IMG/VR virus record: IMGVR_UViG_3300042691_032331
Span: 31,133 to 95,132 of that record
Length of the DNA: 64,000 nucleotides
Direction: 5' to 3' (one strand)
DNA from: a virus
Shown: piece after piece, positions 36,484 through 51,763 of the stretch
How positions within the stretch are numbered: position 1 is the stretch's first letter
Layout: each line of letters opens with the position of its first letter
The notes under the pieces: model-generated
What the model saw: the letters and a program-made list of their open reading frames with translations, nothing else
Databases searched by the model: none
Told to the model about the DNA's origin: nothing
Translations under genes and position numbers: made by a program

Positions 36484-36761
36484 TGTTTAAGCATTTCAAT
36501 AATTTTTTTAGGATCCATTAATTCATGGGGCATTTTAACACATCTTTCAATTACTTCATACTCTACAATTTCCCAATTACTCATATCTGATCCTTTATTG
36601 TAAGGTCCTGGTGTATTCATTGTTAGCATCGATCTAAGCTTGCCTATTGTATCCCAGACTTTGCCAGTCTTTGACCAAACATCATACACTCCACCTTTAT
36701 GATAGAGACCAGTAGTTTTGTTGCGAATTTTGTAATAAGTAGCCATCTTAACAGTATACAA
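36480..36761 (-). CDS. Hypothetical protein
   Basis: YKIRNKTTGLY...WSKTGKVW. Confidence 0.55.
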   Translation of the reverse strand: MYTVKMATYYKIRNKTTGLYHKGGVYDVWSKTGKVWDTIGKLRSMLTMNTPGPYNKGSDMSNWEIVEYEVIERCVKMPHELMDPKKIIEMLKQ

Positions 36762-36770
36762 TAAAACTGA

Positions 36771-37598
36771 TTATTTGTCAACTTTAAGTAAATCTTGTAA
36801 TTTATACAACTTTGTCATGTACTTACTTGGATTGCTTAATACACTAGATTCAATGTCACCGTTTCTACGTGAACCATATTTTGTTTCAAAATCAACATTA
36901 TTGACTTCTTTGAATAGATTTACCATTTCTAATACTGTATTACCTTGTCCATGTCCTAAATTTTCTATTTTTTTAGTTGGATCTTCTATAGCATACTCAA
37001 TAGCTTGGCAAACTTCATTTACATGAATATAATCACGTTCGCAAGTTCCATCTTTTGTATTGTAGTCATTACCAAAAATAGTAAAATTACCTTCTTTGGG
37101 TGCCTTTAATAAGTTATAAAATAAGCCATCTGGGTTAGTAGGAGGAACAACAGTACTTCCAATAACATTGTAAAATCTAAATATAGTATAATCCATATTG
37201 AATTTTGTACACCATTCTACTGTACAATCTTCTGCCATTTTTTTACTTATACCATATGGACTTTTCATTTCTACTGCTGCACCTGTACTTGCTAATATAA
37301 AATTATTACAACGAATTCCTTCTAATACATTTAGAGTTCCTATAACATTCGTATTGTAATAATTAATAGGTTTAGATACACTTTCGCTAACATTTACTAA
37401 ACCAGCCAAATGTACTACTGCATCAAATTCATTTGCAAGGTGTATAAACAATCTTATATCCATGTTAACAAAGTTTTTTGTTTCTATTTTAGGTTCTGCA
37501 AAATCTAAACCGTATACTTCATACTTGTCCTCTAAAAATCTACATAAATGTGATCCTATATATCCTGAACTACCTGTTATTAATACTTTCTTTTTCAT
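36771..37598 (-). CDS. NAD-dependent sugar epimerase (GalE-like)
   Basis: TGSSGYIG, YGISK, FRFYNV and GTCERDYIHV motifs. Confidence 0.9.
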   Translation of the reverse strand: MKKKVLITGSSGYIGSHLCRFLEDKYEVYGLDFAEPKIETKNFVNMDIRLFIHLANEFDAVVHLAGLVNVSESVSKPINYYNTNVIGTLNVLEGIRCNNFILASTGAAVEMKSPYGISKKMAEDCTVEWCTKFNMDYTIFRFYNVIGSTVVPPTNPDGLFYNLLKAPKEGNFTIFGNDYNTKDGTCERDYIHVNEVCQAIEYAIEDPTKKIENLGHGQGNTVLEMVNLFKEVNNVDFETKYGSRRNGDIESSVLSNPSKYMTKLYKLQDLLKVDK

Positions 37599-38935
37599 AA
37601 TCCCTCAAATAAATCTTCAAGTGTTTCTTCCATAATTGGCATAAAATCAGGATCCTTTGAAAGATATGTGTCCTGATCAGTATACTTGACTTTAAATTTT
37701 CCTTTATTAGTGTATACACTTCGTATATCATCAATACAAACTATATTTCTATCTAAGCTATCAATAAAATCTTTGTACGTTGTTGTATGTTGTTGACATA
37801 TTTTAGCAGTATTACTATTGCTTTGTCTTGGTTCAAATGCATTAAAACAGTTGTTCCATTTATCAAAGTTTGTTATTTCTTGTGCAACTACTTTGTCGTG
37901 CTTACCTTCTTTATAATAACTCTCCGCAGTAGGAAACCTATCGTAAACATCTTTAATTACTTTTGTTGCCCATTTTTTATCCGTTGTATAAAATAACTCA
38001 CTATCAAAATTCTTTGTCCATCTCATTTTTTCCATTGCGATTGTGGGCAATTGACTTATTTGTTCAATAAATGCTAATCCATAACTTTCAACATTACTAG
38101 GATTGAATGCAACTCTGCAACTAGTAATGAAATCAACCTTCTCTTGCCCAATTACACCTACTGCAATTTTATAATCAACTCCTATTTTTTTCAATCTTTC
38201 TTCAAACTTTTTAGCACCGTTTGCATTGGTCATTACTCTAGCAGGTAGTTTAGTTTCTTCTATTACTTTAAGATAAATTTCGGGGTTTTTGCCTTCTTCC
38301 CATCGACCAATAAACAATACACCCTCACGTGGTTTATCATGTTTTTGTAGTAAGCCTGTTTCGGTGAATGGGATCGGTAAATGCCAAGCACCATTATCGA
38401 TTTCTATTTGATTAAATTTACTTTGTGTGCCAACATAGATGTCACTCATTTCTAATTGCTTACGCATCATTTCGTTAACTGAATTTAGAAATGGATTGTG
38501 TAATGTGTTGGGGAAAATTTGACTTTCTAAGTGTGTATATGCAATGATTTGAATAACATCTTCAAAACCCATTGTGCTTGCAACTTGTACGGTCTCATAT
38601 GTGTTACAAACTAATACATCATATAAGTTAGCACTTAACGCAGTAATAATTGCGTTACGAAAGTTAGCCATCCGTTCGTAGCAAAAGCTATCGCCATACA
38701 TAAAAATACTACTGTGGTTTGTATACGCATACGATTCCTCAGGATAAATAATGTTAGTGTTTAGTGATTTGATAAAATCATTGTCTTGTGGTTTTTTGTC
38801 AGTAATAATATCAACCTTAATATTATTTTCTTCCATCATTCTGATAAAGCTTTTAGTAAATTGACCAATACCACCATGTGGTACTAGTGTTTGATAACTA
38901 ACTAAAAAACCAATTCTTTTATCGTAAACTCTCAT
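37595..38935 (-). CDS. GT-B (GT4-like) glycosyltransferase
   Basis: PHGGIG, LFIGRWEEGKN and NPSNVESYGLAFIE motifs. Confidence 0.85.
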   Translation of the reverse strand: MRVYDKRIGFLVSYQTLVPHGGIGQFTKSFIRMMEENNIKVDIITDKKPQDNDFIKSLNTNIIYPEESYAYTNHSSIFMYGDSFCYERMANFRNAIITALSANLYDVLVCNTYETVQVASTMGFEDVIQIIAYTHLESQIFPNTLHNPFLNSVNEMMRKQLEMSDIYVGTQSKFNQIEIDNGAWHLPIPFTETGLLQKHDKPREGVLFIGRWEEGKNPEIYLKVIEETKLPARVMTNANGAKKFEERLKKIGVDYKIAVGVIGQEKVDFITSCRVAFNPSNVESYGLAFIEQISQLPTIAMEKMRWTKNFDSELFYTTDKKWATKVIKDVYDRFPTAESYYKEGKHDKVVAQEITNFDKWNNCFNAFEPRQSNSNTAKICQQHTTTYKDFIDSLDRNIVCIDDIRSVYTNKGKFKVKYTDQDTYLSKDPDFMPIMEETLEDLFEGL

Positions 38936-39780
38936 GTTCCCCATTCATTTTTAAATAGTGGTACTTGTAGTCTATCACTATAACGCAATCCATGTTTCAT
39001 TGCAAGTTCTGCTACAGTTCTATTATTGTAATGATACACACTTTCTACACCACCTACTGGCATCAGATATACATGACCACTGAAGCCTTCTTTTTTATAC
39101 AGTTGTATAACTTCTAACGCCTCATCAACATCATCTTTTGTAGCAACTACAAACTTAAGATAAGTATGACCTAAATCTTCATATTCACGAACAATGTCAG
39201 GACGTATTGCTTCTTCTCTAAGTTCGCCACTTACACTTAGTTTAGGACTCACACTGAATGTTAGATTATGATAACCATTTTTATGTGTCCATCGATATAA
39301 AAATAGTTTAAAGTCTGGTTGAAGTTTCTGTGTACCATTTGTTTCAAAAGTAATATCTCTACATTTCTTCATATTTGGTCTAGACAATAATTCTTCATAA
39401 CTGCGTTGCCAGCCTAATAATGGTTCACCACCTGTAATAACTAAGTGTTCACTACGCCATTCCTTAAATGGCAATGATCCTACTATAGAATCTGCAATAA
39501 CTTCTACATCGTACATTTTACTTAAATCTTTAAACGCAGGGTGCCAACTTGCATAGCTATCACATCCAGTACTAACAAGAGGTAGTTCGTGATAGAATTT
39601 AAACTCATGTACACGCTTTGCAACTTTATCTGCTTCAGTAGAACATTTGCCAGACGGCATACCAAATCCACTGCATGTAAAGTTACAACCATATGTTCTC
39701 AAGAAAACTGAGGGCACACCCATAAATCTGCCCTCACCTTGTATGCTATAAAATAATTCTGCTACTTTAATTTTACTCAT
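38932..39780 (-). CDS. queE: 7-carboxy-7-deazaguanine synthase (radical SAM)
   Basis: ELFYSIQGEG, FLRTYGCNFTC...CDS, ITGGEP, ETNGT and SVSPKL motifs. Confidence 0.9.
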   Translation of the reverse strand: MSKIKVAELFYSIQGEGRFMGVPSVFLRTYGCNFTCSGFGMPSGKCSTEADKVAKRVHEFKFYHELPLVSTGCDSYASWHPAFKDLSKMYDVEVIADSIVGSLPFKEWRSEHLVITGGEPLLGWQRSYEELLSRPNMKKCRDITFETNGTQKLQPDFKLFLYRWTHKNGYHNLTFSVSPKLSVSGELREEAIRPDIVREYEDLGHTYLKFVVATKDDVDEALEVIQLYKKEGFSGHVYLMPVGGVESVYHYNNRTVAELAMKHGLRYSDRLQVPLFKNEWGT

Positions 39781-40051
39781 AAATTTTTGACCATTGTTTA
39801 AGTTTTTCTTTTTTTCTTTCTTTTGCTATTTCTAGATTCTGTGATGATATCACATCTTGTTCTAATAGTATATCTATTAAGGCTAACACATCACCAATTT
39901 CCATTTCTAACATGGTTCTGTGTGTATGATTCATGTCTGATTTGTAATGTGCAGTATTCAACCCAAATCTACGAATTTTGCTTACTTCTACTATAACTTC
40001 CGCACATTCTTCTTGTAAGATGCCTAACGCTTCTTCTATTTTACTATTCAT
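39773..40051 (-). CDS. MazG-like nucleotide pyrophosphohydrolase
   Basis: QEECAEVI...EMEIGDVL. Confidence 0.7.
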   Translation of the reverse strand: MNSKIEEALGILQEECAEVIVEVSKIRRFGLNTAHYKSDMNHTHRTMLEMEIGDVLALIDILLEQDVISSQNLEIAKERKKEKLKQWSKIYE

Positions 40052-40332
40052 ACATACCTATCTACGAAAATACCTCTGATTGTAGCACGACTTAACAATC
40101 TTTGTTCTTTAATGGATGCAGCAAACTCATATTGTCGTATCCATTCTGTTTCCTTCATATAATGATAATTGTTTATAACTCTATTAGCTTCTTGTATAGA
40201 CAACAAACGATCTAAATCATCATAATATTTTTGTTTGTTTTCTTCTGCAATGGTAGAATTTATAGCACTGAGTCTATGTGATATTTGACTTACTTCATAG
40301 AGCAAAGTGCTTGGAACAGTGTGTATAATCAT
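40048..40332 (-). CDS. Hypothetical protein
   Basis: Coupled ORF. Confidence 0.45.
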   Translation of the reverse strand: MIIHTVPSTLLYEVSQISHRLSAINSTIAEENKQKYYDDLDRLLSIQEANRVINNYHYMKETEWIRQYEFAASIKEQRLLSRATIRGIFVDRYV

Positions 40333-41387
40333 GGGTCAAAATGAATTACTTTATTGTTGTAAAATTCATAAAAATATTCTAAACCTTTTTCCATAGGATT
40401 ATGTACAGGTCCATATTCGCTTGTGTTATTGTTATACAAGAACTTTCTGCCTTTATCCATGCGTTCAGCAATTTCATCATCTTCATAACATGTTTCCATA
40501 TATGCTGCTTGATGTGCTTCTACAAACTCACTTTCAAAATGACAGATATCTTCTGGATAATAAAACTCAACAATGTTTTTTGTTTTTTCTGGACTTATAG
40601 GATGTAATGTCGAAATTACTAGTACATTAGGATACCACTCTACCATGATGTTAGGATAGATAGTTAACCAGATTGCTCCGTATTCAGGAATCTGCCCACG
40701 TGTATAATCAAGTAAGGCTTTATGCCAACGTTTATAAACTGGTGTGCCTGGCGTATTTAGTTTATTTTTTATACCAACTGATTGAACACTATACATATGA
40801 TCGTGTTGCCAAGTTAAGTTGCTACAGTCAACAAAATTTCCTAATCCAGGATGAAAGGGATCAACATGATAATCATCTAGATAAACTTCAATAAACGTCT
40901 TCCAGTTATAATTACATTCATGTTCAACTCTGCTATGAAATTCATAACCAGTAAATGAAAAGTTTTTTACTAGATTTATTTTATTTAGGTGTGATACTAA
41001 ATCAAAATTATTTTTAGCAAATAACATGCCATTCCAATTTTGTATTTGATACTTTTTTAAGTCTTTTTCAGGACATTCATCAAAGTGTGGTGCAGCAATT
41101 AATTTTCCCTCTGTATTGTAAGTCCATCCATGTAATGGGCAAACTAAATTTGCTGCTGGTTTTGAACCTGATAATATAGTTGCTTGTCTATGTCTACAAA
41201 CATTACTAAAACATTCAATTCCATTTTTATTATGTATGAGAAACTTACCATCATTTTCTTGTGGTATTACATAAGTATCGTTCAAATTTTTTACAAATAG
41301 TTCGTGACCTAAATAACTATTTTGCTTAAATAAGTTTTTTTCTTTCTCTAAGATAAAATCATCAAAATAAAAGTGACTTGGCTTCAT
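40329..41387 (-). CDS. Rieske non-heme iron oxygenase alpha subunit
   Basis: CRH...CPLH Rieske ligands; NWK...DDYHVDPFH...EDD mononuclear-iron site. Confidence 0.88.
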   Translation of the reverse strand: MKPSHFYFDDFILEKEKNLFKQNSYLGHELFVKNLNDTYVIPQENDGKFLIHNKNGIECFSNVCRHRQATILSGSKPAANLVCPLHGWTYNTEGKLIAAPHFDECPEKDLKKYQIQNWNGMLFAKNNFDLVSHLNKINLVKNFSFTGYEFHSRVEHECNYNWKTFIEVYLDDYHVDPFHPGLGNFVDCSNLTWQHDHMYSVQSVGIKNKLNTPGTPVYKRWHKALLDYTRGQIPEYGAIWLTIYPNIMVEWYPNVLVISTLHPISPEKTKNIVEFYYPEDICHFESEFVEAHQAAYMETCYEDDEIAERMDKGRKFLYNNNTSEYGPVHNPMEKGLEYFYEFYNNKVIHFDP

Positions 41388-41698
41388 AATTTTGGTATAT
41401 TATATTCTCTTGTATATTGCGAATCTATGCTTCCGCTAACTTTAGGACTAGGATATTTAACACTACTTTCAACTTCAAAATTAAAATGTTTTAATATATT
41501 TCTTTGATCTATTTGACTACCACAAATTCTAGAACATTCTCTAACTATAAGTTCTGCAAATTCTTTTTGATTAACTTGCGGAACACCTAAAATTTCATAT
41601 GTTGATTGTTTCAAAAATTTATCAATTATATGCATCGTGATTCTCCAGTAAAGTACGTGATTGAATATCCCAAAATAATTCTGCTGCCCTTTTAGCAT
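41384..41698 (-). CDS. Small 'FAELIVxEC' family protein (start likely MHIID)
   Basis: EFAELIVREC...ILKHF. Confidence 0.5.
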   Translation of the reverse strand: MLKGQQNYFGIFNHVLYWRITMHIIDKFLKQSTYEILGVPQVNQKEFAELIVRECSRICGSQIDQRNILKHFNFEVESSVKYPSPKVSGSIDSQYTREYNIPKL

Positions 41699-41885
41699 GT
41701 TCTAAAGATATATATTGACCTAAATGTGCTTCATCGTCATGCCTAAATGTATATTCTCCTGTGTATGCAACTGAGTAAAATATTTCTTGCAATGCTATTT
41801 TACTAGCAAATGCAATTATTTTTCCAGTATCTTTATTGTAGTAGTAATATTTGTCACTTACACTTTTCCACTCATAATCATTCAT
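41622..41885 (-). CDS. Hypothetical protein
   Basis: LGQYISLEHAKRA motif. Confidence 0.5.
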   Translation of the reverse strand: MNDYEWKSVSDKYYYYNKDTGKIIAFASKIALQEIFYSVAYTGEYTFRHDDEAHLGQYISLEHAKRAAELFWDIQSRTLLENHDAYN

Positions 41886-42199
41886 TCTTGTTCCTCAAAT
41901 TCAAATTCAAACTGATTATGACCAAAATAGTCTCTAAATTGATCTTTAAAATCATCATCATTTTGAATCCAATGCCTGATTGCATCTTGATCTGTTTCAT
42001 CTAGGTCATAAAAATAACCTCTGAAATAACTTGATTGTTCAATGCTGGCTTCTTCTCTTATTGCTTCAGCCTCGTCCCAATCTTCTTCGTTATCACTATC
42101 ACTTAGTGAATCTGCTTTGATCCATGTATCAAATGCATCATTGTGTGCATCTTCGTTTAGATTATTGATGATATCAAAAGTTTCTTCTAATGTTTTCAC
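41882..42199 (-). CDS. Very acidic small protein
   Basis: D/E-rich, 105 aa. Confidence 0.5.
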   Translation of the reverse strand: MKTLEETFDIINNLNEDAHNDAFDTWIKADSLSDSDNEEDWDEAEAIREEASIEQSSYFRGYFYDLDETDQDAIRHWIQNDDDFKDQFRDYFGHNQFEFEFEEQE

Positions 42200-42711
42200 G
42201 CAAACAAATCCTCATTCCATTCACGATGTCCTTCACGAAAAGCCATATTGCTTTGAGTTTCACGTACTTCTACACGATAACACCAAAGACGTTCAGCTTC
42301 ACCTGGTCCCCACATATCAGGAATATACACGCCATTCACATATTTGTAAAGCATATCGGCTAAGCCCTCACAGCCTAATTTAGGTAGAATGGTTAATTTA
42401 GCCATTTTCTTTTGTTCAAGTAACTTAAATGTTTCCATTTCTGGATCATCCTGTGCTACAAGTAATGTATGGTCAAATTGATCTTCTAATATCTTTTTTA
42501 ATTCTTTTAAGCCACCATAATCAGCAGCCCAATTGCGAACATCTAAATGATCAGTACCAAAATAAAATTTCATATTAAAACTATAACCATGTATTAAATT
42601 GCAATGACTATCAGCACGCCATTGACGATATGCACATGGAAAGCTATCATGATATTCTTTTGTTGAAGTGTATTTGTAAACTCTTGGTGGGTAAATTTCA
42701 TTTAAATACAT
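42196..42711 (-). CDS. queD: 6-carboxy-5,6,7,8-tetrahydropterin synthase
   Basis: AYRQWRADSHCNLIHGY, DYGGLK, FDHTLL and VRET motifs; GGAG SD before MYLNE. Confidence 0.88.
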   Translation of the reverse strand: MYLNEIYPPRVYKYTSTKEYHDSFPCAYRQWRADSHCNLIHGYSFNMKFYFGTDHLDVRNWAADYGGLKELKKILEDQFDHTLLVAQDDPEMETFKLLEQKKMAKLTILPKLGCEGLADMLYKYVNGVYIPDMWGPGEAERLWCYRVEVRETQSNMAFREGHREWNEDLFA

Positions 42712-43039
42712 TATATTCTCCATTAATGAAAGTTTCATATTCTTTTATTTCTTCCATCAACTTTGGAAATTTTTCATGTAATAACTTTGTATGCAATTCA
42801 CTAATTAATGTATCATACAAATCACTATTGAATACATCTTCAGTCATAATTGGTTCTAAATATTTTTCATCCATCCAACTGGGTGGATTTTCAAAGGGAT
42901 AACCAATTAAATTAAGTAAAATATTAAATCGCATTTGACTTGTTACGATTTGTTTTTCTAATACCTCAATTGGCTGTGAAGATAAAATTTCGTATCTTCT
43001 TAAGATTTCTTGTGTTACGGGGTCATTTAAATTTGTCAT
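42698..43039 (-). CDS. Hypothetical protein directly upstream of queD
   Basis: AAGGAG SD before MTNLN; start reassigned. Confidence 0.55.
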   Translation of the reverse strand: MTNLNDPVTQEILRRYEILSSQPIEVLEKQIVTSQMRFNILLNLIGYPFENPPSWMDEKYLEPIMTEDVFNSDLYDTLISELHTKLLHEKFPKLMEEIKEYETFINGEYNVFK

Positions 43040-43105
43040 ACTTTGTCTCCTTTGTAAGCAAGACATGCAGAATTTTTATAGCGGGGTGAATGTCAGTAGA
43101 CCGCT
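43037..43105 (-). ncRNA. Candidate preQ1-class-I-like riboswitch / cis-regulatory pseudoknot
   Basis: AGCGG-UCUACUGACAUUCACC-CCGCU-AUAAAAA-UUCUGC-AUGUC: P1 stem, A-rich tail and pseudoknot overlapping an anti-SD stem. Confidence 0.55.
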
Positions 43106-43332
43106 TATTTTTTATCAAAATATTCTTTATATTGTATATATTTGTCAAAATCTTCTTGACCTAAGAAGAATTTTTTTTGAAAGTTTGTAACAATTTTTAC
43201 ACAGTGCTCTATGTTTTTCTCTGGTAAAGTTTTATTCACAAATTCTGTATTACAACGCCAATATAGATACTCATGGTCTCTAAAACCAACATCATCTAAC
43301 ATCATAGCAAAAACAAAATAAATGTCAATCAT
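43105..43332 (-). CDS. Hypothetical protein
   Basis: Coupled ORF. Confidence 0.4.
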   Translation of the reverse strand: MIDIYFVFAMMLDDVGFRDHEYLYWRCNTEFVNKTLPEKNIEHCVKIVTNFQKKFFLGQEDFDKYIQYKEYFDKK

Positions 43333-43528
43333 TATTTAAATTTGATAAGGTAACTAAAATTTTGACTTGTTCTCTAAGAGAATTTAACATTTCTAAATTA
43401 AGCATAAGTTGGTTAGAAGAATCCATACCCTTTTCTTCTAATACAAATTGTGTCATTACGCTCAACCCATACAATTCTGCCATTTTTGAAATAGCTTTGT
43501 GTAAGGATTCTATATTTTTTTCACTCAT
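43325..43528 (-). CDS. Hypothetical protein
   Basis: Coupled ORF. Confidence 0.4.
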   Translation of the reverse strand: MSEKNIESLHKAISKMAELYGLSVMTQFVLEEKGMDSSNQLMLNLEMLNSLREQVKILVTLSNLNND

Positions 43529-43737
43529 TATTTTTGTTTATATTTACTACACATTAATTCAAATTCAGATGTTTTACTTTGAATTAATCCATAACTTGCT
43601 TTTGGATTCTGTTGTCTATATATTTGTTTTTCTTTTTCTACACATTCATCAAATTTATTTGTGCATCCTACTAATAAAAGTGTTGATAAAATTAAAGTGT
43701 ATTTCATGTTAAGCTCCTTTAACTTGCGCTGTTGCAA
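43528..43737 (-). CDS. Small lipoprotein (start likely MKYTL)
   Basis: Lipobox LVGC. Confidence 0.55.
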   Translation of the reverse strand: MQQRKLKELNMKYTLILSTLLLVGCTNKFDECVEKEKQIYRQQNPKASYGLIQSKTSEFELMCSKYKQK

Positions 43738-44173
43738 CTCTTTTTCTTAAACTACTTGAACTAAAACTATGGTCACGATGATTATATATTATTTCTATAT
43801 TTCTCATCATACATTCTTTTTTGCCACTAAACTCTTGTTCTTTGTATTCAACACCTAGTATACGCACATCTATGGGTAATGTCAATAATATATCTACCAA
43901 ATCTTGTTCAGTTTGATATATTACAACTTCATCTACATAGCGTGTTGCAGCCAATTGAATTTGCCTTTCGACAATACTTTGAACTGGTTTATTTTTAGTA
44001 TCTGGTCTGTCTATTGTTGGATCAGTCTGTAATCCTGCAATTAAATAATCACAATGATTTTTAGCTTCTGCTAACATAGCAATATGACCTGCATGTAACA
44101 GGTCAAATGTACTAAAAGTTATTCCTATTTTTAATCCTTTTTCTTTAAGGTCTTTTATCTTGTTGAATATCAT
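43709..44173 (-). CDS. Cytidylyltransferase (TagD/glycerol-3-phosphate cytidylyltransferase-like)
   Basis: TFDLLHAGH (HxGH), YLIAGLQTD and RDHSFSSS motifs. Confidence 0.88.
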   Translation of the reverse strand: MIFNKIKDLKEKGLKIGITFSTFDLLHAGHIAMLAEAKNHCDYLIAGLQTDPTIDRPDTKNKPVQSIVERQIQLAATRYVDEVVIYQTEQDLVDILLTLPIDVRILGVEYKEQEFSGKKECMMRNIEIIYNHRDHSFSSSSLRKRVATAQVKGA

Positions 44174-44301
44174 TTTCTTTTAATTGACAATCGCACTCAC
44201 TATTGATACAAGCACCTGTGCAGGGTGATCCTGAATTTAACATCAGTACTATAAGACCATACAATACTGCTAAAAATAATAATACTGATATTATGTACAT
44301 T

Positions 44302-44979
44302 TTATCTATTCATTCTTGCAATTTGATAGAACTCATTGCGTACTTCAGGATCAGTTTTGAATCCTCCACCTAATCTAACAGTTACAGTAGAACTACCAGT
44401 ATCTTCTACACCTCTACTTTTAACACAATAATGTTGTGCATCAATCATAACTGCTACATCATTGGTTTCAAGTATAAAACAAAGTGCATGAAAGATTTGT
44501 TCAGTTAGTCTTTCTTGAATCTGTGGACGCTTACTAAAGTATTCAACGATTCTATTAATTTTACTTAGTCCAAGTACTTTTTCTTTTGGCACATAAGCAA
44601 CTGTAGCAAGACCATCAATTACTACAAAATGATGTTCGCAATTACTTTGTACACTTACATTACGTTCTACAACCATCTCATTGTATTTCATTTTGTTGTC
44701 AACAGTAGTGCATTTGGGGAATGCTTCGTAATCAAGACCCCAAAAGATTTCATTGACATACATTTTTGCAACTCTAGTTGGAGTTTCAATTAAACTATCA
44801 TCACTCATGTCTAACCCTAAAGTTTTCATGATTTGATGAAAGTAACCTTCAATAGCATCTATTTTTTCTTTGCGTTCCCACTTGTTAGGTTTCATGGGAG
44901 TTTCTACACCCATTTTTACTAGATATTCATGGACTTTTTGACCCAACTCAGGATCGGTTTTAGTTTTGTTGTATGACAT
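44302..44979 (-). CDS. folE: GTP cyclohydrolase I
   Basis: TPTRVAKM, CEHH, GLSKINR, QIQERLT and HYCVKSRGV motifs. Confidence 0.96.
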   Translation of the reverse strand: MSYNKTKTDPELGQKVHEYLVKMGVETPMKPNKWERKEKIDAIEGYFHQIMKTLGLDMSDDSLIETPTRVAKMYVNEIFWGLDYEAFPKCTTVDNKMKYNEMVVERNVSVQSNCEHHFVVIDGLATVAYVPKEKVLGLSKINRIVEYFSKRPQIQERLTEQIFHALCFILETNDVAVMIDAQHYCVKSRGVEDTGSSTVTVRLGGGFKTDPEVRNEFYQIARMNR

Positions 44980-45055
44980 TTTGATTTCCTTCCTTACACG
45001 GATTTAATTGTTGAAGTTTGCAACCTTTGTGTTGCATAATTATTTATTCTTTCTT

Positions 45056-45670
45056 TTAGTTGATTTTAATTTCTCTACAGTCGGGGTAGTTGTAGAACTT
45101 TTCTTCTTGCGGCGTGATTTCGTTTTTGGTAAAGAGATTGATTCCTCTGACACATTCTTCTGGGCGCATGTAATAGTGAAATCCCAACTCAAATTCACTT
45201 TGTGCAGACCATGGATTGTAGGTGAATATGTCTCGTCCATCCATACGCATTTTACTTGCGGCTTTATAGAAATTGATATCATCTGTTAGTATACATCCTC
45301 CACGACCTATTTGTAAAGGCTTTGTGTGACCAAAACTTAAACATTGAATTTGCCCTTGCTTGTACATATTGGGTTCAAACATTCTTGCACTATCCCATAT
45401 ATTAGTGCCGATAAAATTATATTCATTACGCCATTTTGTATCAGTTAATTCGTAATTAACGCCCAATTTATGCATTGTCATTAATACACTAAGATAAGTT
45501 TTTGCTGGAAATTTTACGGATTTAAAATCTGATAATCTAAAAGCAATTTCTATCGCATGTGTGCAACAATCCGTTGTAATACAATATGGTGCACCTGTGT
45601 ATTCTGATATTATTTTTTCAAAGTGTAATATTGAATTATATGGATTTTTATAATCTTTTACATCAACCAC
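45056..45670 (-). CDS. Short DegT/DnrJ-family PLP-dependent aminotransferase
   Basis: FEKIISEYTG...CTHAI...WDSA...LSFGHTKPLQIGRGG (PLP Lys). Confidence 0.75.
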   Translation of the reverse strand: MVDVKDYKNPYNSILHFEKIISEYTGAPYCITTDCCTHAIEIAFRLSDFKSVKFPAKTYLSVLMTMHKLGVNYELTDTKWRNEYNFIGTNIWDSARMFEPNMYKQGQIQCLSFGHTKPLQIGRGGCILTDDINFYKAASKMRMDGRDIFTYNPWSAQSEFELGFHYYMRPEECVRGINLFTKNEITPQEEKFYNYPDCREIKIN

Positions 45671-46172
45671 TATATGTACCTGTTATTTGTAGTGTATGTC
45701 TAGCTTCTGTTCCAAAGTTTCCTGCATAATGTTCAGTATTGTAATTCCAATAAACATAATCACCTTTATTCCAATTTACTATACCTGTACCATCAACTTC
45801 TAAATAATGTCCACTCTTCCAATCTTCTAAAAAAACTATGCATCTATAAATTAAGTTTGGATTAGTTAACTTATGTACTTCTTGATACCGAGTATATGTA
45901 TCTCTATGTAGTGGTAGTGCTTCTAAAGGATTTTGTTTAAAAAAACTTATGCCTACGTGTTGCCAATCTTTCATCAAAGTTAAAAAGGGCAATGCATAGT
46001 CAGGTGTGGGTTGACTCATATCATAAACTCCACCTGTGTATTTTAAACCTTTCCCATATTTTTCATCCCATATAGGAATCATGTCTTGATTCGGTATAGG
46101 TTTCCAAATATAGTTTAAGTTTTTAAAACTATCATCCCACCATGGGTCAACATGCCCTTGTCCCCATTTCAT
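45663..46172 (-). CDS. 2OG-Fe(II) oxygenase-like protein
   Basis: LPLHRD (HxD)...H...NFG...R.TLQITG double-stranded beta-helix pattern. Confidence 0.7.
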   Translation of the reverse strand: MKWGQGHVDPWWDDSFKNLNYIWKPIPNQDMIPIWDEKYGKGLKYTGGVYDMSQPTPDYALPFLTLMKDWQHVGISFFKQNPLEALPLHRDTYTRYQEVHKLTNPNLIYRCIVFLEDWKSGHYLEVDGTGIVNWNKGDYVYWNYNTEHYAGNFGTEARHTLQITGTYSG

Positions 46173-46381
46173 TTTGTTTCTTCTGTTTTTTCAATTTTCT
46201 TTTCTTTTTTAGAAATCATTGGGCTATAGTCACTAAACATATTTTCTATTTTCCAATTAATAGGTTTCCAAAATTTTGCAAACATATTGTTTAAGAAAAG
46301 AACCATTACGCCCATTAAACAAAATGATAATCCAATGAGTAGTGTACCTACTAAAAATGCTGCTGTATCGTTAATATCCAT
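46169..46381 (-). CDS. Small membrane protein
   Basis: Single TM helix. Confidence 0.55.
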   Translation of the reverse strand: MDINDTAAFLVGTLLIGLSFCLMGVMVLFLNNMFAKFWKPINWKIENMFSDYSPMISKKEKKIEKTEETK

Positions 46382-46418
46382 CTTTATTTTCCTTTAAACC
46401 TTTTAGTTCTGATATGTA

Positions 46419-47621
46419 TTAGTATTTTGACTCACGGGTATGTTTTCTGTAATCTACATCGTTACGTGAATAATTCTCTCCCATGCCTAAGATTATATCA
46501 CAGATACGATCAATTGTCTTATCAGTGTAATCACTTATTTTACCCATATTATTGTGTTGATGTTTTAATAACGGGATTAATTTAGTAAGTGCATCGTTCA
46601 ATGACCAAGGTACGTATAAGCGTTCATTATCATTAGCAAAAGATTCAGGGAAGCTGCGATAAGCAGGGTATAATACATTACACCCAAGAGTATCGGCTTC
46701 GGAAACTGTATTGCTAACCCAATCTTGTAAAGCACAGTTAAACAATACACGGCTATCGTTGAGTAAATTATAGTAATCATTTTTCTCTAGATCCTCGTAT
46801 ATAACAAGTTTACCTTCATTAACTAGTCGTTGTGTTCTTTCTAGGTAACTACTATTATTTGATTTTAATTTTCCACCACTCAATATACAGAACTCAACAT
46901 CATTATGATTATAGCCTTCCCAATAAGCCATCTTACTTAATCTATGAAATTCTTCAATCAAATCCATATAGAAGTCAGGTTGCTTTTCTTGGTCCCAACG
47001 TGCTGCAAATGCTACACGTAATTTTCTTTCACTGAATGGCTTTAGAGGACCTTCTATTCGTTCTCGTACTTCATCTTTACCATATGCTAAACCACTTATA
47101 TTGTAGATTGGTGCAGTCCAGCCTGCAATCTTCATATGCATTACCATTTCTTCACTGCTTGCAAGTATACCGTCTACCCACGTGTCAACCATTTTTTCAT
47201 AATGACCCATCCACTTTGCCATATTCCATACATGAACGAAATCATCGGGGTCAATACTTTGTGCAAGACAGCGAACAAAAACACGGGGACGCATATGATT
47301 AGGGATTTGATCCATAATATAAGGTAAGCTCTCGATACCTGGTTGAAACATGTCCTCAAAGTATATAACATCTGCATGATTAATTTCTCCTGCCTTCATT
47401 TTACGAACGATATTCATCATTTGACTCATGCCAAAATAACTACGACCATGTGCATCAAGCACTTGACCAGTTACAATAGCTTTATCATTGCTTAGTGTTT
47501 CACCAGGTACTACTTCATAGTCTATACCTCTGCGTTTAAATACACGTTCATTCCATTCTTGTAATTGCAATGTATAACGTGCTTTGTAGGGTTCGAGACC
47601 CATGTAATATAATTTACGCAT
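46419..47621 (-). CDS. GT-B glycosyltransferase
   Basis: FAARWDQEKQP, LFNCALQDWVSNTVSEA and YPAYRSFPE motifs. Confidence 0.8.
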   Translation of the reverse strand: MRKLYYMGLEPYKARYTLQLQEWNERVFKRRGIDYEVVPGETLSNDKAIVTGQVLDAHGRSYFGMSQMMNIVRKMKAGEINHADVIYFEDMFQPGIESLPYIMDQIPNHMRPRVFVRCLAQSIDPDDFVHVWNMAKWMGHYEKMVDTWVDGILASSEEMVMHMKIAGWTAPIYNISGLAYGKDEVRERIEGPLKPFSERKLRVAFAARWDQEKQPDFYMDLIEEFHRLSKMAYWEGYNHNDVEFCILSGGKLKSNNSSYLERTQRLVNEGKLVIYEDLEKNDYYNLLNDSRVLFNCALQDWVSNTVSEADTLGCNVLYPAYRSFPESFANDNERLYVPWSLNDALTKLIPLLKHQHNNMGKISDYTDKTIDRICDIILGMGENYSRNDVDYRKHTRESKY

Positions 47622-48114
47622 CTTCTTCCTTAAAGTCTATAACATTACCTTCATCATCTGCACAGATAATTTTAACTTTATTGCCATTCTCATCTTCAAT
47701 AAGAATAGGACCCCATACCCATGCTTCAGTGTCAGTTTGATCCCATCCTTCTTCTCCCTCTAATACTTCATAAACACTAGAATCACCAAATCTTTCTAGT
47801 AATTCTTCTTGTTCATCTTCATCCATATCTTCTGGAAAGTCGAAATCCTCCCAACATCCATCACTCATAACGTCAAGTTCAACATTGACGATGTTGTTAA
47901 CACAACAATCATACATGTTAATACTATCACATTTATCATCGCCATTTGGAACATAAGTAAATTCAAACTGCGGAGGATTATCGTCATCAGTCTCTACAAA
48001 GAAACTACTCCAACGAAATCCTGTTTTACGAACGATTGAATTACCATCTTTATAGTAATATTCATGTTCTTCACAAGATTTTTTATAATACGTTGAAACT
48101 TTCCAGTTAGCCAT
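47614..48114 (-). CDS. Acidic hypothetical protein
   Basis: D/E-rich; coupled to the glycosyltransferase gene. Confidence 0.55.
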   Translation of the reverse strand: MANWKVSTYYKKSCEEHEYYYKDGNSIVRKTGFRWSSFFVETDDDNPPQFEFTYVPNGDDKCDSINMYDCCVNNIVNVELDVMSDGCWEDFDFPEDMDEDEQEELLERFGDSSVYEVLEGEEGWDQTDTEAWVWGPILIEDENGNKVKIICADDEGNVIDFKEEDA

Positions 48115-48239
48115 TTTACTTTATTTCCTTTCCCCATATTTTAGGAAGAATAACTGCTAGAAATTTTCCATAGGCTGCAAACATACCAAAGAAAATAACT
48201 GCCTCTAGAAGTCCCAATAAAAGATCATTATAATTCATA

Positions 48240-48446
48240 TTAGATTTTTGTATCTTCAAGCCACTGATCTTTAGGCTGTTTGCCTGCAAGTTGCTTTGTA
48301 TGTTGACGATATGAAAAACTACGCATATCGTATAATTGTGCTTCATCAAACTTATAACCATAGTCAACACAGAATTCTCTGTATTTTTCTAGGTCTTCGA
48401 AAATTTGACGAACTTTAGGATTAGGTTGAATTACTGGTTTGCCCAT
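48240..48446 (-). CDS. Conserved phage hypothetical protein
   Basis: IFEDLEKYREFCVDYGYKFDEAQLY; AAGGA SD. Confidence 0.6.
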   Translation of the reverse strand: MGKPVIQPNPKVRQIFEDLEKYREFCVDYGYKFDEAQLYDMRSFSYRQHTKQLAGKQPKDQWLEDTKI

Positions 48447-48459
48447 TTGTGTATTTCCT

Positions 48460-48888
48460 TTAAATTGAAAGTTGTTGATAAGGTTTTGTTAAATTATACT
48501 GAATTTTGCATCCGTTTTCATTATCTTCGGATACCTCAATTACTACATTACGATTAGGATACTTATTTGCAATTTGGATGTATAAATCATCTGCAATCAT
48601 TTCGCATGATTTATGATTTAATTCTAAAATCGCATTATCGTACAACCCTTGTAGCCATCTTTTGAATTGGATGAATTCAATGTCCCTGTCATTATGGAAC
48701 ACATCAATGTACACCCTGAAGTGGAAGATATGACGATGAGGGAAAGACAGAAAACTAACATCTTGTAGTTTAGGATCTTCCCCAGCTGCTGGATATCTGT
48801 GTATGCCTTCTTTTTGAAACGTAACATAAATTTGCCTCATAGCAGATTCTTTAATGCGTTCTACTTTGTCTCTTTCTTCATTTATCAT
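48460..48888 (-). CDS. Second T-fold (QueD-paralog) protein, candidate DpdL-like CDG decarboxylase
   Basis: LSFPHRHIF (LxxxHRHxF), HNDRDIEF, SCEMIA and EVSEDNENG; lies near the dpdA-like gene. Confidence 0.6.
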   Translation of the reverse strand: MINEERDKVERIKESAMRQIYVTFQKEGIHRYPAAGEDPKLQDVSFLSFPHRHIFHFRVYIDVFHNDRDIEFIQFKRWLQGLYDNAILELNHKSCEMIADDLYIQIANKYPNRNVVIEVSEDNENGCKIQYNLTKPYQQLSI

Positions 48889-48889
48889 A

Positions 48890-49096
48890 TTATTCACCAA
48901 AGTCTACTCGTTCGTGATCATGTTCCCATTGTAACTTATTTAGGCGACTTATTTCGTCTTTATATTTTAATTTTTGCTTTTTCATTTCAGCAATTTTATC
49001 CGCATCAAAATTAGGATTTTTTTCTGCTTCTATAATTTGTTTGTCCAATTGCCTATGTGTTTCTGTAAGACTGGCAATTCTATTTCTATAAGGCAT
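48890..49096 (-). CDS. DUF465/YdcH-like coiled-coil protein
   Basis: HRQLDKQI...MKKQKLKYKDEI. Confidence 0.7.
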   Translation of the reverse strand: MPYRNRIASLTETHRQLDKQIIEAEKNPNFDADKIAEMKKQKLKYKDEISRLNKLQWEHDHERVDFGE

Positions 49097-49105
49097 ATAT
49101 TCTCC

Positions 49106-50572
49106 TTAAACAATTGAAAAAAGTTCATTGAATGATGTTCTTGCATTCACGGTTTTCTTACCACTAAATCCCTGACTACCTGATTGCATTTGCATCCATA
49201 ATCTACTATAACTATCAATTACATCATGACTAGCACTCCTTGACTTTTGAGAAAAAACTTCGTTGATAACATCTTTAAATTTAATACCTGTATTATTTTG
49301 TTTAATCATAGCAGGAATAACACCTTGTGCATATTTACGGTTAGCCTCTTGCACAGCACTTATATGCTGATAAACATTATGTGCTTGTAACAAAGTATAA
49401 CTTAATGTATCCCAACTTGTTTTTGTTTCTTTACCATGTTGACCAATAAAGCCAACACCCCTGTAGCATAAATCTTTAATCAACAGTTTATCAGTAATAG
49501 GACTATTTGTAAAGTCTTTATGGATATCATCACCCAAAACAACATCTATGAATTTTCTATTATCCGTTGCATATTTTTTATCTTCAGCCGTTTTCTCCAT
49601 ACTATATGACCATTTCTTTTCATGCTCAATATTATTTTTGAAATAAGCCAAACCTTTTGCAGCACTAAAAAATGGGCTTGCACAATCAAATGTAATTATT
49701 AATTTTGGGTTATGATATTTTCTAATAGCTTGTTGTATATCTGTAAACAATACTGCATATTCTAAAATGCTTACACCTAAACAGTGTATAAGGTCATGTT
49801 TACCTTCTTGCAATAAACCATCATAGATTATATCAACCATACGCCTTAAGGTAAGATGTATATCTACTTTGTTTTGTCCCCCAAATGCCCAACCATTAAA
49901 ATGATTATCAGGGTATATTGCAGGATCACAATATTTTTTCATTTCCTGATACCAATCATCGCTTTCTTTATGTGTGGTACCTTGTAATACGTTTAAGAAC
50001 TTACAATTACCATTGCGATTAGTTATAAAATATTCATTATTAATATGTGTGGCTTTGATTGCATCGTTGATGTTATGTATACCATGTAAAGGTATTGCTT
50101 TAGTGTTTAGGAAACTTTGACTAGGAATATCTAAACACATACCATAATCCATGTATGTATCCATCCATGTCAATACTGCTTTACGTTTCTCCATTGCTTT
50201 AGGGCAATTAGGATTCTTCCAATCAGCAGGCCACTGACCTTTAAGAATCTGAAATCCACCGCTATCACCCAACATGAAAGTATTATTTCTGTCACGCTTG
50301 CGTATAATACTTTCACCATGATCATCTTTGGTAGTGTCTAAGTTAGCATGACCTGCACTATACAAACCCCATTTGTAAGTGTACAATCCTTTTTGATCAT
50401 TAAGAAAGTTTAGTGCCTCAAGATCAGGTATACCTTGAGGTATTCTATCGTCAGGAAAATATTTTTCTCCCTCACGTTGTCTACCTAATCCACTGATAAA
50501 GAAACTGCTTACAGCAGGCAAAAATAATGCCCAATTAGGATCTTGTTGTTGTGATAAATTAGTTTGTTCCAT
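49106..50572 (-). CDS. dpdA: DpdA-like 7-deazaguanine DNA transglycosylase (TGT paralog)
   Basis: GDSGGFQ, CLDIP, VLQG, WAFGG, HCLG and TFDCAS TGT-fold motifs, clustered with folE/queD/queE. Confidence 0.75.
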   Translation of the reverse strand: MEQTNLSQQQDPNWALFLPAVSSFFISGLGRQREGEKYFPDDRIPQGIPDLEALNFLNDQKGLYTYKWGLYSAGHANLDTTKDDHGESIIRKRDRNNTFMLGDSGGFQILKGQWPADWKNPNCPKAMEKRKAVLTWMDTYMDYGMCLDIPSQSFLNTKAIPLHGIHNINDAIKATHINNEYFITNRNGNCKFLNVLQGTTHKESDDWYQEMKKYCDPAIYPDNHFNGWAFGGQNKVDIHLTLRRMVDIIYDGLLQEGKHDLIHCLGVSILEYAVLFTDIQQAIRKYHNPKLIITFDCASPFFSAAKGLAYFKNNIEHEKKWSYSMEKTAEDKKYATDNRKFIDVVLGDDIHKDFTNSPITDKLLIKDLCYRGVGFIGQHGKETKTSWDTLSYTLLQAHNVYQHISAVQEANRKYAQGVIPAMIKQNNTGIKFKDVINEVFSQKSRSASHDVIDSYSRLWMQMQSGSQGFSGKKTVNARTSFNELFSIV

Positions 50573-50961
50573 TAAGGTATTTGCATTGATTGTACTGATG
50601 CTTTTGTATATGCCTGTTCTTCTGGTTTTTCTTCTGATTTAATAAGAGTTTTAACCATTTCAATTTGATTTTTCTTTTCGTTGATTTGATTAACTAAATC
50701 ATTTATAGCTGGATGAGTTTTAGCCAATCCTTCTAGTTCTTTTTCTTCCTGCATTTTTCTTTGCGCCCATTCAAAAGCTTCAAGCATTACAGGATTAGTA
50801 GTTAGTGTTATATTATTGTCAAGTGGTATCCATCCTGTGCCAGTGCTAACTTCTAGTCGTTTCATGCTACCATTCCATTGAATAGCACCTGTGTTACTAG
50901 GTTGTGAGTAAGTATTGACTTGATACACTAATGGCATATTGGTTGATGTAATATTAATCAT
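50572..50961 (-). CDS. Hypothetical protein with C-terminal coiled coil
   Basis: Coupled ORF. Confidence 0.55.
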   Translation of the reverse strand: MINITSTNMPLVYQVNTYSQPSNTGAIQWNGSMKRLEVSTGTGWIPLDNNITLTTNPVMLEAFEWAQRKMQEEKELEGLAKTHPAINDLVNQINEKKNQIEMVKTLIKSEEKPEEQAYTKASVQSMQIP

Positions 50962-51689
50962 TTTTGTTGTGCCGGAAAAAGATATGAATAAACAGCAAGA
51001 CCACTATCGATACTAATTTCCATAGCACCTTTGTCTAAAATACGCATAGTTTTATCTCCTGCTAAACTTAAAATGCTTACAACCTCTTGTACAGGCCAAC
51101 TTAGTGCCTTACCTAATGTGCCGTTAACATTTGCTTCAAAAACAAAATTACCGCTATGTGTACTAACGTCACCAAAGAAGATTTTTAAGTCACCATTCTC
51201 TACTTTAGTCATAAAATGTTTTTCATCACTATTAGCTTGGCTCTGTTTTTTAAGTCGTAGAATACTGTTTACACTAGGAGTGAACTCAACATTCCATGAT
51301 GTACCATGATACTTAACTACTTTGACTTTTTCTTCAACAATGCCCTTAGCCATTAATCTATAATCATTTACGAAATCACCTGCTTTAGTTTCAAAGTGAA
51401 TTGAATCAGGAGTATCTACTCCATCACGATTTTTTCTAGTCATTGTAATTTTAGCATCTTCATCATAATCATCAAAACTTAAAATTGTTTTTAGTTTTGA
51501 GAGATTAGGCATACCAAAAGTACCAATCAATTCTGGTTGTGGTGTTTTAAGTACACCGTTGAATATAACATTTTTGTCATCAGACAATGCCGAAACTTGT
51601 GTTTCTGTGTCTGTGCCAATTACTTTAATTAAATCTATAAATCCTAAGTTGGATGTATGATTTATCAAATCTTGTAAAATATCTTTCAT
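50958..51689 (-). CDS. Putative DNA polymerase sliding clamp (gp45/PCNA-like)
   Basis: 243-aa size, alpha/beta pattern and position next to the polymerase. Confidence 0.6.
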   Translation of the reverse strand: MKDILQDLINHTSNLGFIDLIKVIGTDTETQVSALSDDKNVIFNGVLKTPQPELIGTFGMPNLSKLKTILSFDDYDEDAKITMTRKNRDGVDTPDSIHFETKAGDFVNDYRLMAKGIVEEKVKVVKYHGTSWNVEFTPSVNSILRLKKQSQANSDEKHFMTKVENGDLKIFFGDVSTHSGNFVFEANVNGTLGKALSWPVQEVVSILSLAGDKTMRILDKGAMEISIDSGLAVYSYLFPAQQK

Positions 51690-51763
51690 TTATTGTCCTT
51701 TAAATTATTTAGGAAAGTCTGTTGTGTATAATAATGGATTTTATTGCAAAAGTCAAAACTAAT

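Follow-up and report, generated by a model that had tools for sequence, protein, structure and literature searches.

We analyzed a minus-strand gene cluster at 36771–50572 of a 64-kb stretch (the window) of a 95-kb IMG/VR viral contig (record IMGVR_UViG_3300042691_032331). The contig belongs to an uncultured giant phage, and its completeness by CheckV was ~27% of the genome. The cluster combines a known core, predicted to place 7-deazaguanine in the phage DNA (dDG), with a new family of glycosyltransferases (GTs), designated GT400, which is tied to the core protein DpdL and likely forms a predicted glycosylation layer. To a layered module of this kind, in which the dDG core would be followed by glycosylation of the deazaguanine by GT400, we give about an even chance on the sequence evidence. 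That the sugar genes are not bystanders of the deazaguanine locus is supported, because GT400 is tied to DpdL and DpdA across lineages, and because the pair of an oxygenase and a half-size DegT-family aminotransferase ('mini-DegT') occurs only in deazaguanine clusters.

Linkage of the GT400 family to DpdL

A hidden Markov model (HMM) census of the fetched loci detected DpdL in 81 of the 83 loci with an open reading frame (ORF) of the GT400 family. The two genes were 250 bp apart in the median and 2.7 kb at most, and the two loci without DpdL were both cut short. The family occurred in about 12 lineages from several phage families, including Pseudomonas jumbo phage PA5oct (Wroclawvirus), Sinorhizobium phage Phosso, Acidovorax phage ACP17, Xanthomonas phage BUDD, Synechococcus phage BUCT-ZZ01 and phage BCSR5. 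It was partnered with at least two distantly related types of DpdA. Co-occurrence of the GT with dpdA across phages, set as a check in the preliminary description of the cluster, was thus found for the GT400 family.

PA5oct and Phosso shared with the window the DpdA subtype, DpdL (49–60% identity), a GT400-family gene beside DpdL, and the order family-B DNA polymerase (PolB), clamp-like gene, cluster. The PA5oct gene, EST35_0317, lies between the DpdA-like gene and dpdL (hhalign to the family, 99.9%). The start of the Phosso gene overlaps dpdL (hhalign 100%), and dpdA of this phage is located ~170 kb from dpdL.

ACP17, BUDD and BUCT-ZZ01 are T4-like or ~200-kb phages, unlike that of the window. 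The GT400-family gene in these was embedded among dpdA3, dpdL, folE, queD and queE. The ACP17 homologue (ASD50404) overlaps the end of dpdA3, and dpdL and queE then directly follow; DpdA3 of the ACP17 type, carried by all three phages, is only distantly related to the window enzyme. The BUDD homologue stands between a small ORF and a gene annotated as 'queuine tRNA-ribosyltransferase'. The order in BUCT-ZZ01 was QueE, phosphoribosyltransferase (PRTase), QueD, FolE, GT449-like, DpdA, DpdL, GT400-like, and its GT400 was 64.5% identical to that of the window. This cluster therefore has a second GT (GT449-like), like the window, and an extra PRTase, unlike the window. GT400-family genes were also present inside the deazaguanine clusters of BCSR5, of four metagenomic loci (L086–L089), of three contigs of metagenome-assembled genomes (MAGs; L107–L109) and of a sister clade.

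In 185,579 prokaryotic species genomes, the family was matched only four times. Three of the matches were MAG contigs with a phage-type dpdL, two of which also contained PolB and dpdA, and the fourth was a 1.3-kb fragment. GT400 was therefore rejected as a bacterial gene. The four contigs were assigned to Bacteroidota, Planctomycetota and Bacillota, and are probably of phage origin, having been binned with bacterial genomes. L107 (NZ_JBBAKG010000001.1, a 183-kb contig of a Haliscomenobacter MAG) and L108 carried phage-type PolB, the clamp-like gene, DpdA, DpdL and the GT. L109 carried DpdL, the GT and a short-chain dehydrogenase/reductase (SDR), and L110, the 1.3-kb fragment, DpdL and a partial GT. 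L107 hints that Haliscomenobacter may be a host.

No GT400-family gene was found in the whole genomes of phages phiST, RHph_I1_18, Ahp1_CNU-2021, Bakedbeans, D479 and MA9V-3, all of which have DpdL. In a weakly resolved DpdL tree, these GT-less lineages were scattered among the GT-bearing ones. Because DpdL occurs without GT400 and the two kinds intermix on the tree, GT400 looks like an add-on downstream of DpdL and not a DpdL cofactor. In GT-less Rhizobium phage RHph_I1_18, a macro-domain (Appr-1-p processing) protein follows dpdL in the place of the GT (L092:7420-8244).

The GT400 protein of the window gave no Pfam match; PF00534 was present in the BUDD branch. Foldseek with the AlphaFold2 (AF2) model placed the protein in the GT-B fold, as had been proposed from the sequence. 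The model suggested two Rossmann domains and was nearest to retaining GT4-type enzymes. Its top PDB matches were glycogen synthase, BshA, MshA, PimA and sucrose-phosphate synthase (SPS), with E values of 1e-11 to 1e-9 and TM-scores up to 0.67. The top named match in BFVD was the ACP17 GT (TM 0.71/0.82). ACP17 and one unnamed protein reached TM 0.7–0.8, versus 0.6 or less for other GTs, and phage DNA alpha-GTs appeared only at ranks 17 and 36. Residues R208, E212, K213, E308 and E326 of the donor domain were invariant in the family.

Two strongly acidic small proteins with long D/E runs are encoded at 47614–48114 (166 aa, overlapping the start of GT400) and 41882–42199 (105 aa). Neither gave a family match, and it is only a guess that they are DNA mimics or anti-restriction proteins. 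The conserved 68-aa ORF between dpdL and GT400 (Table 1) also gave no family match.

The deazaguanine core and its neighborhood

All the genes named in the preliminary description were found as intact minus-strand ORFs within 36771–50572, adjoining the PolB gene. The minus strand encodes every gene in 36771–54469, and the stop codon of one often overlaps the start codon of the next (Table 1). The identification of folE, queD and queE in one such run was borne out by the family matches, and the label of the MazG-like hydrolase is tentative, its match being below the cut-off. The MazG-like gene is directly upstream of queE in both the window and the sister clade.

Table 1. Coordinates of the polymerase, core, sugar and oxygenase genes, in order of transcription.
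Feature	Position	Strand	Evidence
Family-B DNA polymerase and clamp-like 243-aa gene, directly upstream of the cluster	50958..54469	-	PF00136 + PF03104
DpdA-like DNA guanine transglycosylase, 488 aa, PA5oct/Phosso subtype	49106..50572	-	AF2 pLDDT 92.8; TGT fold by Foldseek
Small DUF465 protein between dpdA and dpdL	48890..49096	-	PF04325 7e-14; present in 31/80 close relatives
DpdL, QueD paralogue, proposed CDG decarboxylase, 146 aa	48460..48900	-	LSFPHRHIF motif; tblastn; hhalign to QueD profile
Conserved 68-aa ORF (p68b) between dpdL and GT400	48240..48446	-	In 70/80 close relatives and the sister clade, always between DpdL and GT400
GT400, DpdL-associated GT4-like GT-B glycosyltransferase, 400 aa	46419..47621	-	AF2 pLDDT 86.5; Foldseek
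Cupin-fold 2OG/Fe(II)-type oxygenase, 169 aa	45663..46172	-	Pfam Asp_Arg_Hydrox E = 1e-3, below cut-off; PDB profile match AtsK E = 0.003
Mini-DegT, half-size DegT-family sugar aminotransferase, 204 aa	45056..45670	-	PF01041 1e-13, in two pieces
FolE, GTP cyclohydrolase I	44302..44979	-	PF01227 2e-60; NF006824 324 bits, above cut-off
Small HxGH nucleotidyltransferase	43709..44173	-	PF01467 4e-13; RfaE domain II 78 bits, TagD 64 bits, both below cut-offs
QueD, 6-carboxytetrahydropterin synthase	42196..42738	-	PF01242 1e-15; TIGR03367 below cut-off
Rieske non-haem iron oxygenase alpha subunit	40329..41387	-	PF00848 2e-33, PF00355 4e-12, both above cut-offs
MazG-like small protein, 92 aa	39773..40051	-	PF03819 E = 1.3e-3, below cut-off
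QueE, 7-carboxy-7-deazaguanine synthase	38932..39780	-	phrog_2076 1e-53; QueE NCBIfam models 1e-16 to 1e-9, all below cut-offs
GT449, second glycosyltransferase, 449 aa	37595..38944	-	PF00534 9e-4 (weak); profile matches PDB 7ec1 'glycosyl transferase group 1', 1e-5
GalE-like SDR, 275 aa, epimerase or 4-oxidoreductase	36771..37598	-	PF01370 4e-35; TIGR01179 galE 164 bits, cut-off 262

The protein first described as a second T-fold protein was identified as DpdL. The DpdL signature is LxxxHRHxF in place of CxxxHGH, and DpdL is a candidate 7-carboxy-7-deazaguanine (CDG) decarboxylase (Cui, Hutinet et al., NAR 2023, PMC10516641). The sequence in the window, LSFPHRHIF, fits this signature, and L51, H55, H57 and F59 were invariant in 21 sequences, including those of phiST and ACP17. 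tblastn with DpdL matched ACP17, PA5oct, Phosso, BUDD, BCSR5, BUCT-ZZ01, RHph_I1_18, several Vibrio and Aeromonas phages, and phiST. The DpdL profile matched the phage QueD profile (hhalign 87%, E = 4e-6); against a single QueD sequence the match was insignificant (7%), and a HMMER search of the profile against PDB gave nothing.

In the GT-less Vibrio phage Bakedbeans (L096:5182-6363, 393 aa) and Chryseobacterium phage MA9V-3 (L098:5428-6312, 294 aa), DpdL forms the C-terminal part of a longer ORF. The Bakedbeans ORF was considered as a DpdA-DpdL fusion and rejected, its N-terminal part not being DpdA of the window type by hhalign.

QueC and QueF had not been seen in the window, and the extended search of the 95-kb contig also found neither; the single weak QueF match was the expected T-fold cross-hit on FolE. 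QueC was also not found in the complete genomes of PA5oct, Phosso, ACP17 and BUCT-ZZ01. Since DpdL is present and QueC is absent, the pathway is predicted to stop at CDG or 7-deazaguanine, in agreement with the base proposed in the preliminary description.

The DpdA-like protein was identified by fold search and hhalign, as HMMER against Pfam and PDB was blank. The protein gave no match to the Pfam model (PF01702) of tRNA-guanine transglycosylase (TGT), and among 50 relatives only two matched (E = 0.04); the profile of the 50 sequences found nothing in PDB. On the other hand, the top 50 PDB matches of its AF2 model in Foldseek were all Z. mobilis TGT (E ~1e-7, probability 1.0, TM 0.4–0.5). The hhalign score of its profile was 96% to ACP17 DpdA3, 94% to the BUCT-ZZ01 protein and 64% (weak) to phiST DpdA3. 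Among 1.84 billion cluster representatives, 812 were related to the protein at E <= 0.001. In the 50-sequence alignment, D103 (DSGGFQ), S104, G106, D148, H263, G266 and D296 (FDC) were invariant, and we take D103, D148 and D296 to correspond to Asp102, Asp156 and Asp280 of TGT. Identity was 35% to the PA5oct homologue and 27% to that of Phosso. The fold, the strong hhalign matches to ACP17 and BUCT-ZZ01, and the weak match to phiST suggested that the 488-aa protein, rightly named DpdA-like from the start, looks like a TGT-fold enzyme of a distinct ~490-aa subtype common to PA5oct and Phosso.

The DNA of Cellulophaga phage phiST carries dDG (PMC10516641). Its system shares with the window FolE, QueD, QueE, the LxxxHRHxF motif of DpdL, a MazG-like gene, a TGT-fold transglycosylase, the absence of QueC and the place beside polymerase genes. 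From the DpdL motif and homology, the place beside the polymerase and the MazG-like gene, we conclude that, at the level of sequence, the core in the window is the published phiST-type DpdL/DpdA dDG system. GT400-family and sugar genes are both missing from phiST, unlike the window. The phiST DpdA3 has 259 aa, versus 488 aa in the window, and the phiST polymerase is of the Pol III alpha type, versus family B.

The nearest relatives of the PolB were those of jumbo phages Phosso, Atu_ph07 and Vibrio phage 2.275.O (46–49% identity; Phosso, 49%). Of the two replication neighbors described earlier, the polymerase was confirmed by its domains. The clamp stands only by a 33% identity of the 243-aa protein to a Phosso gene annotated as sliding clamp; the protein gave no Pfam or other family match and no PDB match. 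Gene order was constant in 80 close relatives of the locus: PolB, clamp-like, p129, DpdA, DpdL, p68b, GT400, FolE, nucleotidyltransferase, QueD, QueE, GT449, SDR, UvdE. The last of these, a UvdE-type UV endonuclease gene, directly follows the cluster in the window (35431–36483, PF03851 4e-35), and its position is kept in the relatives. Just past it, at 33037–34923, is a gene for a 628-aa SF2 helicase (ResIII/DEAD). Metagenomic relatives of the phage were present on contigs of up to 350–370 kb.

A preQ1-I-like riboswitch, proposed at 43037–43105 in the leader of an ORF-queD pair, was rejected: cmscan of 36000–52000 with permissive filters (E <= 1) gave no Rfam preQ1 match. The only Rfam match in this region was a chance-level ctRNA (42386–42415).

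Other sugar genes, oxygenases and variable cargo

The preliminary description had tentatively assigned the sugar and oxygenase genes to the modification. By linkage this stood for GT400 and for the pair of 2-oxoglutarate (2OG) oxygenase and mini-DegT; the Rieske oxygenase, GT449, the epimerase and the nucleotidyltransferase were more narrowly or loosely associated.

All the 15 mini-DegT homologues on viral contigs were inside deazaguanine clusters, and 10 of these had the cupin oxygenase directly upstream. A GT400-family gene and an SDR were usually nearby, also in L107. The mini-DegT profile matched the structures of WbpE, perosamine synthase and DegT, and Lys117 in SFGHTK, the pyridoxal phosphate (PLP) lysine, was invariant. 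These features agreed with the DegT family, but not with a full-length enzyme: the protein lacks the C-terminal domain, has an internal gap, and is 204 aa long versus ~370 aa for the full form. This half-size form was kept in 16 loci. For the cupin oxygenase, described as a 2OG-Fe(II) enzyme, the family matches were weak, but H89, D91, H148 and R158 (HxD...H...R), typical of 2OG/Fe(II) oxygenases, were invariant in eight homologues.

Cupin, mini-DegT and Rieske genes were absent from all the 80 close relatives and were considered as inserts specific to the window. This was rejected, as targeted scans found cupin and mini-DegT, and partly Rieske, elsewhere. The Rieske oxygenase and the epimerase had been named correctly by family (Table 1); the nearest NCBIfam models of the former, GbcA and BenA, scored far below their cut-offs. 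Because only about half of the Rieske homologues on viral contigs (~10 of 21) were in deazaguanine clusters, the rest being elsewhere, this gene is probably loosely linked optional cargo.

The second GT, GT449, had been described as a GT-B enzyme coupled to queE. Its start indeed overlaps the end of queE by 13 nt, and its profile supported GT-B. Against the GT400 family it gave 81% in hhalign over the donor domain, with a common R-W-[DE]-x-[EG]-K-x-P motif. A GT449 homologue is located inside the BUCT-ZZ01 cluster; in BUDD it is at another locus, far from the cluster and beside NAD-salvage genes. The GalE-like SDR gene has an ATGA overlap with GT449. The small HxGH nucleotidyltransferase was conserved in the window clade (32 loci). 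It had been labeled a TagD-like cytidylyltransferase; nucleotidyltransferase stood, and TagD did not, RfaE domain II scoring higher. It is probably a sugar- or polyol-phosphate activating enzyme. Neither the epimerase nor the nucleotidyltransferase was found in BUDD.

Several slots of the cluster varied among relatives. These held a nucleotidyltransferase fused to a mannose-6-phosphate-isomerase cupin (22 loci), an inosine monophosphate dehydrogenase (IMPDH)/GMP reductase gene between GT400 and folE (16 loci), a Vut_1 transporter (5) and a PRTase (4), and further other oxygenases, homing endonucleases, a Bax1-I protein and a methyltransferase. The Vut_1/YhhQ transporter (PF02592, queuosine-precursor importer family) was present in L015:10256-10975 and four other close relatives. 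The small PRTase was found in clusters of several lineages (L081:7093-7554, L086:5344-5736, L114:9669 onward, L049:10583-11167); it is annotated as xanthine-guanine PRTase in BUCT-ZZ01 and is absent from the window. It could recycle the guanine released by DpdA or make a deazaguanine nucleotide. In the BUDD/BCSR5 branch (L083:6380-7953, L086–L088, L099), the GT is preceded by three conserved genes, whose products are 164, 215 and 143 aa long. The 164-aa product is a PP-loop protein of the 'PAPS reductase family'; it is below the reach of the QueC Pfam model and might be a QueC-like amidating or activating enzyme.

Proposed pathway and alternatives

By homology, FolE, QueD and QueE would convert GTP to CDG. 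DpdL would then convert CDG to 7-deazaguanine, with no preQ0 expected as there is no QueC, and the DpdA-like enzyme would exchange G in the phage DNA for 7-deazaguanine after replication. As judged by gene linkage, GT400 would use a nucleotide-sugar to glycosylate the deazaguanine, most likely after its insertion into DNA. Candidate acceptor atoms would be the exocyclic N2, C7, O6, or the carboxylate if CDG is inserted. In the window clade, GT449 may extend or vary the sugar, and the SDR, the nucleotidyltransferase and the 2OG-oxygenase/mini-DegT pair may supply or tailor the donor, possibly an amino sugar. The outcome would be a purine made bulky by its sugar, which would block cleavage by restriction enzymes and other nucleases. 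The preliminary description had the deazaguanine both hydroxylated and glycosylated. The linkage of GT400 argues for the glycosylation; the hydroxylation is speculation, the Rieske gene being in clusters in only about half of the cases.

This scheme follows the logic of T4, in which a non-canonical base is glycosylated by a phage GT-B enzyme with a nucleotide-sugar and is thereby protected from nucleases. The T4 acceptor, on the other hand, is the hydroxymethyl group of a pyrimidine, in hydroxymethylcytosine (hmC), from an enzyme of the thymidylate-synthase family, and GT400 is structurally nearer GT4 enzymes than phage DNA alpha-GTs. No gene of the thymidylate-synthase family (PF00303) was found in the contig or in the complete genomes of ACP17, BUDD and BUCT-ZZ01; PA5oct and Phosso have one ThyA-family gene each. 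Since the hydroxymethylase of this family is missing there, hmC or hydroxymethyluracil (hmU) is unlikely as the sugar acceptor in ACP17, BUDD and BUCT-ZZ01, and this candidate was rejected.

A parallel by reaction is HuiG of the actinomycete huimycin pathway, which N-glycosylates a free 7-deazapurine, made via FolE, QueD and QueE, with GlcNAc (10.64898/2026.04.15.718813). HuiG differs in that its acceptor is the free O-methylated preQ0 base of secondary metabolism, there is no DpdA, and the product stays outside DNA.

Two published observations fit the glycosylation idea but do not prove it. PA5oct DNA contains a modified G; it is resistant to restriction enzymes whose sites contain G and susceptible to nucleases that recognize hypermodification (PMC12191111). 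dpdA and dpdL of ACP17 alone gave no dDG in E. coli, for which, as the authors proposed, further enzymes may be required (PMC10516641). Somewhat less confidently than for the layered module itself, at slightly under an even chance, we predict that PA5oct, ACP17, BUDD, BUCT-ZZ01, Phosso, BCSR5 and the window clade carry glycosylated 7-deazaguanine, and that the second GT of the window clade leads to a disaccharide or amino sugar with phage-made donors.

Several points weigh against glycosylation of the base in DNA. A hydroxyl is missing from plain 7-deazaguanine, O-glycosides are the usual products of GT4-type enzymes, and no hydroxylase was found to be universally linked to the deazaguanine-GT loci. 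The linkage indicates a common pathway and not the acceptor, so GT400 could act on a precursor or a protein partner. Since many of the 83 GT400 loci are close kin, 81/83 overstates their independence, and about 12 lineages is the fairer count. Unlike the window, PA5oct and Phosso have no homologues of GT449, the SDR epimerase and the nucleotidyltransferase, nor were these found in ACP17 and BCSR5. With ~27% of the genome on the contig, QueC or further enzymes could be encoded in the rest. In the full-text literature searched (subscription journals were outside its scope), there was no mass spectrum of the DNA of any GT-bearing phage. The decarboxylase activity of DpdL is itself a proposal (PMC10516641).

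Another reading is that the DNA carries plain 7-deazaguanine, as in phiST, which makes dDG without any GT, and that the GTs and sugar genes act on virion proteins or on the envelope or some molecule of the host, in an early region that collects auxiliary genes. The unrelated cargo of the variable slots (homing endonucleases, Bax1-I protein, methyltransferase, IMPDH), the frequent location of Rieske genes outside the clusters, and the GT449-like gene beside NAD salvage in BUDD would all be in keeping with such a collection. Chance collection would not, however, produce a GT400 that is close to DpdL in every complete locus examined, across the lineages and with two DpdA types, and that is nearly absent from cellular genomes, nor mini-DegT homologues that are all confined to deazaguanine clusters. 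We therefore consider plain 7-deazaguanine in DNA unlikely. The close association with DpdL, often with overlapping stop and start codons (Phosso, ACP17), would also suit a GT400 that helps in making or inserting the base, through a transient glycosyl intermediate on CDG or 7-deazaguanine or as a structural partner of DpdL or DpdA, so that the final base is unglycosylated. The failure of ACP17 dpdA and dpdL without the GT (PMC10516641) points the same way, but the assay was also negative with dpdA and dpdL of phiST, a phage that lacks the GT. Moreover, phiST, RHph_I1_18, Ahp1 and D479 have DpdL without a GT, and as the GT-less DpdLs form no separate branch on the tree, DpdL does not appear to need the GT. 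Sugar-tailoring genes would also make little sense for a transient intermediate. Such a helper role is in our view quite doubtful.

A product outside DNA, with the DNA itself unmodified, we consider very improbable; it would be a modified tRNA or, as with huimycin and the cyanobacterial pteridine glycosides, a soluble deazapurine or pterin that bears a sugar. FolE and an enzyme of the 6-pyruvoyltetrahydropterin synthase (PTPS) family also begin pterin synthesis, TGT-fold enzymes classically act on tRNA, and HuiG glycosylates a free 7-deazapurine. A Synechococcus tetrahydrobiopterin glucosyltransferase was at rank 31 of the GT400 Foldseek matches, which raised the pterin-glycoside reading; the match was no better than generic GT4 similarity, and this reading was judged unlikely. 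QueE and the DpdA-like enzyme were always present, the cluster lies among replication genes (PolB and the clamp-like gene; primase in relatives), and modified G is present in the DNA of two relatives, phiST and PA5oct (PMC10516641, PMC12191111).

Glycosylation of the deazaguanine in DNA by GT400 remains the preferred reading. The preliminary description knew of no sugar-decorated deazaguanine in DNA, and no report of one was found in the literature searched. To our knowledge, sugars on DNA bases have so far been described only for pyrimidines, namely in glucosyl-hmC, arabinosyl-hmC, base J and glycosylated 5-hydroxycytosine. If the prediction is correct, this would be the first sugar-decorated purine in any genome and a new class of DNA hypermodification, made by a new, GT4-like enzyme family acting on purines in DNA. 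It would identify the modified G of the therapy-relevant phage PA5oct, and might explain the failed reconstitution of dDG from the ACP17 genes. The clade of the window phage is abundant in metagenomes, with thousands of protein clusters, and at least six GT400-bearing phages are cultured, so the prediction can be tested at once. For these phages, the modification would probably provide a new escape from restriction enzymes, CRISPR nucleases and deazaguanine-specific defences.

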